64,000 bases of DNA, from assembly GCF_009931435.1 (NCBI RefSeq), contig NZ_CP043414.1; one strand, 5' to 3'. This stretch comes from Escherichia coli (GTDB taxonomy: Bacteria > Pseudomonadota > Gammaproteobacteria > Enterobacterales > Enterobacteriaceae). Positions 15,001 through 18,000 of the stretch are shown here, piece by piece (the first letter of the stretch is position 1; every line of letters begins with the position of its first letter). Position numbers: made by a program.

Positions 15001-18000
15001 CAGCAATCACCATCACATATTGTGAAATGCATGAAGCAAATGCGCCGCTAACAAAAGAAGCCAGAAAACCAGAGCAGGTAAACCACAACAGTGCTTTATC
15101 TTGTAATAAAACTTTCGGCGACCAGACACTGCCTGTTTCCGTGGCGATGATTTTCTCGCTGCGCTTTACCCAAATTTGAATGAAAAGCATGGGAAACGCG
15201 GAACAGATAGCAGCCAGCCAAAAAGGTAGATTGATGCTCTGCATGACCAACAGCGTGCCGAGCGGCGGACCGATGGTCCAGCCAATGTTTAACATGGTGT
15301 AGTTGATTGAGAAAATCTTCGTTTTGCTGGTGGACGAAAGATTGTCGGCAAACCAGGCTTTCAGCACGGTAGCAAAAACGGAGTAGGCGCAGTTAATAAG
15401 GGCAAAAAAGAGCACCACTAGCGTCACGTTATTCACTAAAGGAATGGCAATAAAACCGCTAGCGAAGGCGGTAATTGACAGTAACATATAGCGTTTCTTG
15501 TCGAACTTATCCGCCAGGATACCAAAACCGAGGCTAAAAACGACGCCAATAGTGAGCGCAATTGTCATCGCATAACCGATTAGATCGACACTCAGGCTGT
15601 ACTGGCGACTCAAGTAAATGGTCATAAATGGCAGCGTAGCGCCGCGTCCGATGGTTAATAACAACGACGAGGCAAGAAGGGCGCTGGTAGAGCGTCGTAG
15701 GGATAAGTTCATTTGTCTGTCCGGCAGTGCGTTTCGTTATGTTTTGTTTTAGAGATGTAAAGAAATAGCATGGCAAAAATCCGAAGTATAGCGACTTATT
15801 TGCGCATTAATGCCGTCGTAACCGGCGACTAACGAATCAACTGTTAAAGAAAAGTAAATTCAGCTAAGTTGATTGCTTACAAAAGATGAAATTCAGAGGC
15901 GGTAGAATGTCGCGAAAAGATGGGGTGTTGGCGCTACTGGTAGTGGTCGTATGGGGGCTAAATTTTGTGGTCATCAAAGTGGGGCTTCATAACATGCCAC
16001 CGCTGATGCTGGCCGGTTTGCGCTTTATGCTGGTCGCTTTTCCGGCCATCTTTTTTGTCGCACGACCGAAAGTACCACTGAATTTGCTGCTGGGGTATGG
16101 ATTAACCATCAGTTTTGCGCAGTTTGCCTTTCTGTTCTGTGCCATTAACTTTGGTATGCCAGCTGGGCTGGCCTCGCTTGTGTTACAGGCACAGGCGTTT
16201 TTTACTATTGTGCTCGGTGCGTTTACTTTTGGCGAACGGCTGCACGGTAAGCAACTGGCGGGGATCGCGTTAGCGATTTTTGGCGTACTGGTGTTAATCG
16301 AAGATAGTTTTAACGGTCAGCATGTAGCGATGCTCGGCTTTATGTTGACCCTGGCGGCAGCATTTAGTTGGGCGTGCGGCAATATCTTCAATAAAAAGAT
16401 CATGTCGCACGCAACGCGTCCGGCAGTGATGTCGCTGGTCATCTGGAGCGCATTAATCCCGATCATTCCTTTCTTTGTTGCCTCGCTGATTCTCGATGGT
16501 TCCGCAACCATGATTCACAGTCTGGTCACTATCGATATGACCACCATCTTGTCTCTGATGTATCTGGCGTTTGTGGCGACAATTGTTGGTTATGGGATCT
16601 GGGGGACGTTACTGGGACGCTATGAAACCTGGCGGGTTGCACCGTTATCGTTACTGGTGCCCGTAGTAGGACTGGCAAGTGCAGCACTATTATTGGATGA
16701 ACGCTTAACGGGTCTGCAATTCTTTGGTGCGGTGCTCATTATGACCGGGCTATATATCAATGTGTTTGGTATGCGGTGGCGTAAAGCCGTGAAAGTGAGA
16801 GGCTAAAAGGCCCCGAGATGTCGGGGCCAGAATAAATTACATAGCGTGTTGATTATAATAGGGCACGCCGAGCGCATCCGACTTATCACTGCCAGTACCC
16901 ATGTGATTTAAATCAAACGGTGGTTGTTCCTGCGATGGGGGAACAACCACGACATTGGCACAGGAAGTAACAACCGGCTGCGTGGTTTGTTCCGCAAAGC
17001 TCTGCGCGGAGAAGAGAATAAGCGCAGTTACCATTGCGGATAAAAGTGGTTTCATGATTGCCTCAGTGACGTTGTCACGTTATCAACTAGCTGTTGTAAT
17101 GATTTAATGGATGTAAAAAGCGCGATTCGCCCTGCATATTGGTCATCCGGTATTTATGTGGCGGAACATCAAAGTAATTTTTGAAGGTTCGGGTCAGAGT
17201 TTGTTGCGACTCGAAGCCATATCGTTCTGCCAGATAGAGTATCGGCTCGTTACTTTCCTTCAGCTTTTGCGCGATTTCCGTCATTTTACGGCTGCGGATG
17301 TATTGGCCTAATGAATGACCGGTTTCTTTTTTAAACATCCGTTGCAGGTGCCATTTGGAGTAACCCGAACGCTCTGACACTTTCTCCAGTGACAGTGGCG
17401 ATTCCAGGTTATCCTCGATCCAGTCCAAAATGCTATGAATGGTAATAGCGTCAGTATTGCGTCTGGACATCGTCATACCTCTTTTTTTGTTTACGGCAGG
17501 ACTTTCTTAAGCAAATGCTCAAGTGTTGCCACTTCGTCCGCCGTCAGGTTTTTTGTTAATTCTTGATGCAGGTCCTGGCCAACTAATTGATGGCATTGTT
17601 CACATATTGCCGCGCCGCTGGTGGTAAGTTTTACCAGTACGCCGCGCTTATCATTCGGGTTCGGCAACCTTTCCACCCAGCCTTTACAAACCAGGCGATC
17701 CAGCATACGGGTCAGCGCTCCCAGGTCGACCGACAACACTTTTTTCAGTTCAACCGGAGTAATACACGACGCGCAGCGGATAGAGCAGAGCACCTTAAAC
17801 TGTGCCGCGGTAATATCCAGCGGAGACAGATACTCGTTAAGCAGGCGATCTTTCTTCTGATTAACCATATGGATTAAGCGACCCAATGGAATAATTTCAT
17901 TGAACAGATCGCTGGTACTTTTCACATTAGTTGCCCTGGCAAGTAATTAGTTGCAGGGGATAATATTGCCCAGGCAAGTATAAGTCAAATGAATGAATTG

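Follow-up and report, generated by a model that had tools for sequence, protein, structure and literature searches.

The marR allele of an Escherichia genome, very probably from cryptic clade I, most likely encodes an ordinary MarR repressor

The marR gene in the stretch of DNA analysed here (hereafter the window: 64,000 nucleotides of contig NZ_CP043414.1, Escherichia coli assembly GCF_009931435.1) most likely encodes a normal, functional, wild type-like repressor of a clade I strain. We put the probability of this reading at about 0.9. The protein differs from MarR of E. coli K-12 at three residues, A53S, G103S, and Y137H. Two of these changes are the norm in most E. coli and the third is a marker of Escherichia cryptic clade I; therefore, nothing in the allele points to resistance. 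The strain carrying it would very likely show wild-type repression and inducibility and no Mar phenotype.

MarR is a homodimeric winged-helix repressor that acts on two near-identical palindromic sites in marO. Its release is brought about by salicylate or through the action of Cu2+ on Cys80. When the mar system is released by inducers or by inactivating lesions, MarA rises, AcrAB-TolC is up-regulated, and OmpF is down-regulated. In the window, marR is the first gene of marRAB and is divergent from marC. The gene order, ydeE–eamA–marB–marA–marR–(marO)–marC–ydeA–yneK, is canonical for E. coli and matches the order in MG1655 and in annotated clade I genomes. The features on which the analysis is based are listed below with their window coordinates.

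16837 to 17055, minus strand: marB, with seven amino acid differences from K-12.
17087 to 17470, minus strand: marA, with a protein identical to K-12 MarA and three silent differences.
17491 to 17925, minus strand: marR, with a GTG start and 144 codons plus TAA; defined by an ORF call, alignment to K-12 MarR, and the annotation of genomes with identical DNA.
17515 to 17517, minus strand: marR codon 137, CAT (His), which is TAT (Tyr) in K-12; changed base 17517, from comparison with MG1655.
17617 to 17619, minus strand: marR codon 103, AGC (Ser), which is GGC (Gly) in K-12; changed base 17619, from comparison with MG1655.
17767 to 17769, minus strand: marR codon 53, TCG (Ser), which is GCG (Ala) in K-12; changed base 17769, from comparison with MG1655.
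17931 to 17945, minus strand: MarR operator core TACTTGCCAGGGCAA (gene strand), just 5′ of the GTG; a member of direct-repeat family D2, same as in K-12.
17960 to 17988, minus strand: marRAB promoter, TTGACT, a 17-nt spacer, and TATTAT; 10 of 12 matches in a consensus scan, same as in K-12.
17966 to 17980, minus strand: MarR operator core TACTTGCCTGGGCAA, between the −35 and −10 hexamers; also a member of direct-repeat family D2, same as in K-12.
18005 to 18024, minus strand: presumed marbox GATTTAGCAAAACGTGGCAT; sequence read directly, same as in K-12.
18137 to 18802, plus strand: marC, divergent, with a protein identical to that of K-12 and 18 silent differences.

The marR product is a full-length protein of 144 amino acids. 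In a search against all PDB chain sequences, 141 of the 144 residues were identical to K-12 MarR (3VOE; E = 9.5e-92), and the end-to-end alignment with 3VOE contained exactly three mismatches, A53S, G103S, and Y137H. Base-by-base comparison with MG1655 (NC_000913.3, 1619120–1619554) gave nine differences in the marR DNA, of which three change the protein and six are silent (codons 62, 63, 70, 79, 92, and 120). The original prediction had named G103S and Y137H relative to K-12 and had put forward A53S as uncertain. The 3VOE and MG1655 comparisons confirm the first two, and A53S proved to be real (GCG to TCG at codon 53, window position 17769), so that residues 53, 103, and 137 all differ from K-12 MarR. 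That prediction had used the correct (reverse) strand, since the plus strand in the marR interval is full of stops when read in frame. Neither the gene nor this protein variant nor the G103S/Y137H polymorphisms are new; the exact protein is RefSeq WP_000843424.1, for which the Pfam MarR domain (PF01047) is on record.

The remainder of the gene showed the features of an intact repressor gene. The dN/dS ratio between marR of the window and of K-12, calculated by the Nei–Gojobori method, was 0.15, a value consistent with purifying selection. All six cysteines, including Cys80, are kept in the translation, and the near-invariant DNA-binding columns of the orthologue alignment (R73, R77, R86, and R94 among them) are unchanged. 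Neither a frameshift nor a stop nor a deletion was found in marR of the window, and no change was found in the recognition helix or the wing when the alignment was compared with the structural model described below.

The marO operator sites, which had been predicted to look intact, were confirmed to be so: the 112 bp upstream of the marR GTG contain zero differences from K-12. This segment includes both operator sites, the −35/−10 promoter, and the marbox. The two 15-nt operator cores, at 17966–17980 and 17931–17945, share the form TACTTGCC(T/A)GGGCAA; we take the former to be marO site I and the latter to be site II. The segment at 18005–18024 is presumably the marbox, the activator site for MarA, SoxS, and Rob in the K-12 locus. 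Upstream of the marbox, substitutions relative to K-12 occur at window positions 18038, 18049, 18079, and 18135 (−113, −124, −154, and −210 from the GTG). The −113 position may belong to the accessory Fis site of this promoter; PCN033, a sensu stricto strain, has the substitution there as well. Strain 2013C-4282 has a further C>T at −75, in the interval that separates the marbox from the −35 hexamer.

Every component of the mar repression circuit, namely the repressor ORF, the operator, the promoter, and MarA, is thus intact in the window. In such a circuit, the MarR dimer would occupy site I, located between the two promoter hexamers, and site II, before the start codon, and would thereby silence marRAB. 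With marRAB kept off, the MarA-driven AcrAB-TolC/micF response would also stay silent for as long as neither an inducer nor a loss-of-function mutation lifts the repression.

To count the alleles at each variable residue, we used 31-mers centred on the variant base, a design in which no 28-base megablast seed can leave it out, and ran them on 5,426 complete E. coli genomes. The A53 31-mer was found in 5159 genomes and the S53 31-mer in only 18. The marR DNA of 16 of these 18 genomes is the same as that of the window; the other two, which are MFDS strains, add E109K. When 24 kb of the window (6000–30000) was used as the query, the best 18 genomes, at 98.4–99.3% identity, were exactly the S53 carriers, and all the rest reached at most 96.7%. 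The best complete-genome match of the window flanks was goat strain R32_14_1F (99.3%), and the 17 others matched at 98.4–98.9%. One of the 18 S53 genomes, 2013C-4282, is listed in PMC10100065 among the fully sequenced strains of Escherichia cryptic clade I. Since the S53 set coincides with the top flank matches and includes this documented clade I strain, the window very probably derives from an Escherichia cryptic clade I strain, an assignment that draws on the local resemblance to a single documented genome of this clade.

Other public assemblies showed the same association. The draft assembly GCA_015316125.1 (contig AAXDOK010000001.1) was 100% identical to the window over 6.4 kb of flanks, and nine of the 10 independent S53-bearing public contigs examined had clade I-like flanks. 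Divergence among the S53 carriers reaches 1.6%, which means that A53S is old and fixed and not a recent drug-selected mutation. Judging from these genome comparisons, A53S is a fixed marker of the clade I lineage rather than a sporadic change, and S53 follows lineage, not phenotype. Among the 8 million papers covered by our literature search, no prior description of MarR A53S was found. As a separate observation, the E109K protein (WP_000843425.1) is carried by two Korean cattle/food isolates of the S53 set (one of them MFDS1022581); E109K is located in helix 5, and conservation of its column among the aligned orthologues is 90% or higher.

An exception to this association was found in CP057254.1, an E. 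coli sensu stricto-like chromosome (marR at 4001–4435 of locus L050) that encodes the A53S/S103/H137 protein on another synonymous haplotype. In its upstream flank, identity is 98.2% with K-12 and 99.4% with strain TR01 of O157:H7. Its marR corresponds to a very common sensu stricto (O157-type) haplotype with G157T (A53S) and one silent change added. Recombination with clade I may have brought in S53. However, the largest clade I-importable tract in this marR is 92 bp and lacks any further informative site, which makes a second, independent G>T mutation the simplest reading of A53S in CP057254.1. One recurrence of A53S in a collection of such size is unremarkable.

The position of residue 53 in the protein also bears on the effect of the change. 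Among 81 enterobacterial MarR clusters, column 53 contained V in 26, G in 25, A in nine, E in seven, T in six, S in three, K in two, Q in two, and I in one. It is among the most variable columns in MarR orthologues (consensus around residue 53, CSIRCxxCITPVE), and Ser occurs there naturally in other genera. In an AlphaFold model of MarR (mean pLDDT 81, about 91 around residue 53), residue 53 is a single coil residue between helix 40–52 and strand 54–55. The winged-helix elements of the model are helix 57–64, helix 68–80, and strands 84–88 and 96–100, and residue 53 lies outside the recognition helix (68–80) and the wing (84–100, formed by the two strands). Residue 103 starts helix 102–116 at its N-terminus, and residue 137 is within the C-terminal helix 129–142. 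According to the alignment and the model, all three changes are in variable columns and outside helix 68–80 and the wing. Additionally, sensing by MarR needs only Cys80, and the C47S/C51S/C54S/C108S/C111S protein, in which Ser flanks residue 53 on both sides, still binds operator DNA (PMC8614764). From the conservative nature of the change, the variability of the column, the occurrence of Ser in other genera, the location in a coil outside the DNA-binding elements, and the operator binding of the Cys-to-Ser mutant, we infer that A53S is most likely a neutral Ala-to-Ser change at a variable loop position.

There is a small chance that A53S instead subtly retunes MarR, for example in its repression set-point, its stability, or its response to phenolic or oxidant inducers, and that selection fixed it in clade I as an adaptive regulatory variant. 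Residue 53 has Cys51 and Cys54 on either side in the model and lies where the hinge leads to the winged-helix domain, and A53S is fixed across a diverse lineage. The same codon-53 G>T on the unrelated sensu stricto haplotype of CP057254.1 could hint at weak positive selection as opposed to drift. However, one recurrence among many thousands of public assemblies is the chance expectation, and fixation in the clade is equally predicted by drift. Column 53 is hypervariable, with Ser, Thr, Gly, and Val all present in orthologues, and the operator shows no co-variation. Neither Cys51 nor Cys54 is itself required for binding to DNA or for sensing (PMC8614764). Similarly improbable is that A53S was selected as a retuning of the Mar stress-response switch that defines clade I and changes, at the hinge to the DNA-binding domain, how sensitive MarR is to inducers or oxidants, with its reappearance in CP057254.1 being the result of parallel selection.

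S103 was found in 4173 of the 5426 complete genomes versus G103 in 1189, and H137 in 4216 versus Y137 in 1190. Thus, S103 and H137 account for about 77–78% of complete genomes, and G103/Y137 of K-12 for about 22%. MarR of other Escherichia was obtained by a degenerate-pattern scan of species-representative genomes; A53/S103/H137 was present in E. albertii, E. whittamii, Escherichia sp. E1V33, Escherichia sp. MOD1-EC7003, and the GTDB E. coli representative. Because S103/H137 is the majority in E. coli and is present in other Escherichia species, it is, on this distribution of alleles, the ancestral, majority state of Escherichia, and G103/Y137 of K-12 is derived and in the minority. The labels G103S and Y137H are therefore reference bias and not true substitutions in the window strain.

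The G103S/Y137H pair has been treated as the cause of efflux up-regulation in a genome report (PMC11504656), and efflux up-regulation was likewise attributed to it elsewhere (PMC8976530). If so, the allele could be a partial loss-of-function marR that derepresses marRAB and adds to multidrug resistance. The population frequencies argue against a causal resistance reading of the pair, which is the state of about 78% of complete genomes and of other Escherichia species. Moreover, the pair showed no association with any level of levofloxacin resistance in isolates with MICs of 0.016 to 16 µg/mL (PMC4317672), and the susceptible strain ATCC 25922 carries it (PMC10782992). These two reports and the majority state support the statement of the original prediction that G103S and Y137H are natural polymorphisms without a link to resistance. 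Taking into account the lack of any frameshift, stop, deletion, or recognition-helix or wing change in the gene and the intact operator, we consider partial loss of function highly improbable. A loss-of-function Mar allele was rejected as a candidate on the basis of the full-length ORF, the intact marO, and the location of the changes outside the recognition helix and the wing.

A sequencing or assembly error as the source of A53S is practically excluded by independent identical copies: the identical 435-bp marR is present in 16 of the 5,426 complete genomes, and the exact protein, which has its own RefSeq entry and is common in public assemblies, is recorded on at least 1000 contigs and occurs in 2785 index blocks of the assembly collection.

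Several observations were made on the genes and flanks around marR. The seven changes in MarB relative to K-12 are S5L, I8M, A9V, A10T, G19S, V20F, and H44Q; six of the seven are in the first 20 residues, which we take to be the signal peptide. This divergence of MarB contrasts with the MarA and MarC proteins, both of which are the same as in K-12. Between the marR stop and the marA Shine–Dalgarno sequence GAGG, an A-tract at 17482–17488 consists of seven A in the window and in PCN033, and of six A in K-12 and the clade I strain 2013C-4282. It is a length-polymorphic homopolymer just 5′ of the marA ribosome-binding site. Over 3 kb, the flank upstream of marC was 92.8% identical to K-12, versus 97.0% for the downstream flank. 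In yneK (20165–21280, next to ydeA), mismatches reach 46–50 per 250 bp when the window is compared with CP057254.1, the sensu stricto contig; from its sequence, yneK appears to be a rapidly evolving gene of unknown function. The peptidyl-dipeptidase gene dcp is annotated as frameshifted in 2013C-4282 (locus L002, 12217–12435) and is intact in R32_14_1F.

Among known systems, K-12 MarR (b1530, NP_416047; structures 1JGS, 3VOE, 3VOD, 5H3R, and 4JBA) resembles the protein of the window in length, GTG start, and 141 of 144 residues. The K-12 mar locus shares the context marC–marO–marRAB–eamA, the operator, the promoter, and the six cysteines with the window. The differences are A53S, G103S, and Y137H plus the six silent changes, with the derived residues at 103 and 137 being those of K-12. 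The majority allele WP_000843419.1 (S103/H137; PCN033 and O157:H7 TR01) encodes the same protein as the window except for Ala instead of Ser at residue 53, and marR DNA of PCN033 differs from that of the window by three nucleotides. Strains 2013C-4282 and R32_14_1F have both the protein (WP_000843424.1) and the 435-bp gene in common with the window. The clade I genomes differ from the window by 0.7–1.6% in the flanks, and the marR–marA A-tract is A6 in 2013C-4282 versus A7 in the window. Clinical and laboratory Mar mutants concern the same gene and carry marR frameshifts, deletions, DNA-binding-domain substitutions, or marO deletions, whereas the window has no such lesions.

Two species-representative assemblies with labels of non-enterobacterial organisms were at odds with those labels. 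SMXE01000224.1, labelled 'MAG: Caldithrix sp.', contains an enterobacterial marR with K-12-type residues at 53, 103, and 137 and the level of identity to the query shown by K-12 MarR. CACSKA010000003.1, labelled 'Chryseobacterium sp. 18061', contains an Enterobacter-like marR with 88% identity to the query. Both contigs are probably contaminated or mislabelled.

The marR allele of the window is ordinary, and the understanding of MarR is unchanged by it. K-12 is a poor reference at MarR residues 103 and 137, a point that matters because genome surveys continue to list G103S and Y137H as 'resistance mutations' of marR. Codon 53 TCG singled out 18 of 18 genomes of the clade I-like set and no others among the 5,426 complete genomes, with at least one sensu stricto exception outside that collection. 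This near-perfect association of A53S with clade I holds no biological surprise and is a small typing note that is possibly useful: A53S could serve as a cheap single-nucleotide flag for possible cryptic clade I membership among genomes labelled 'E. coli'.
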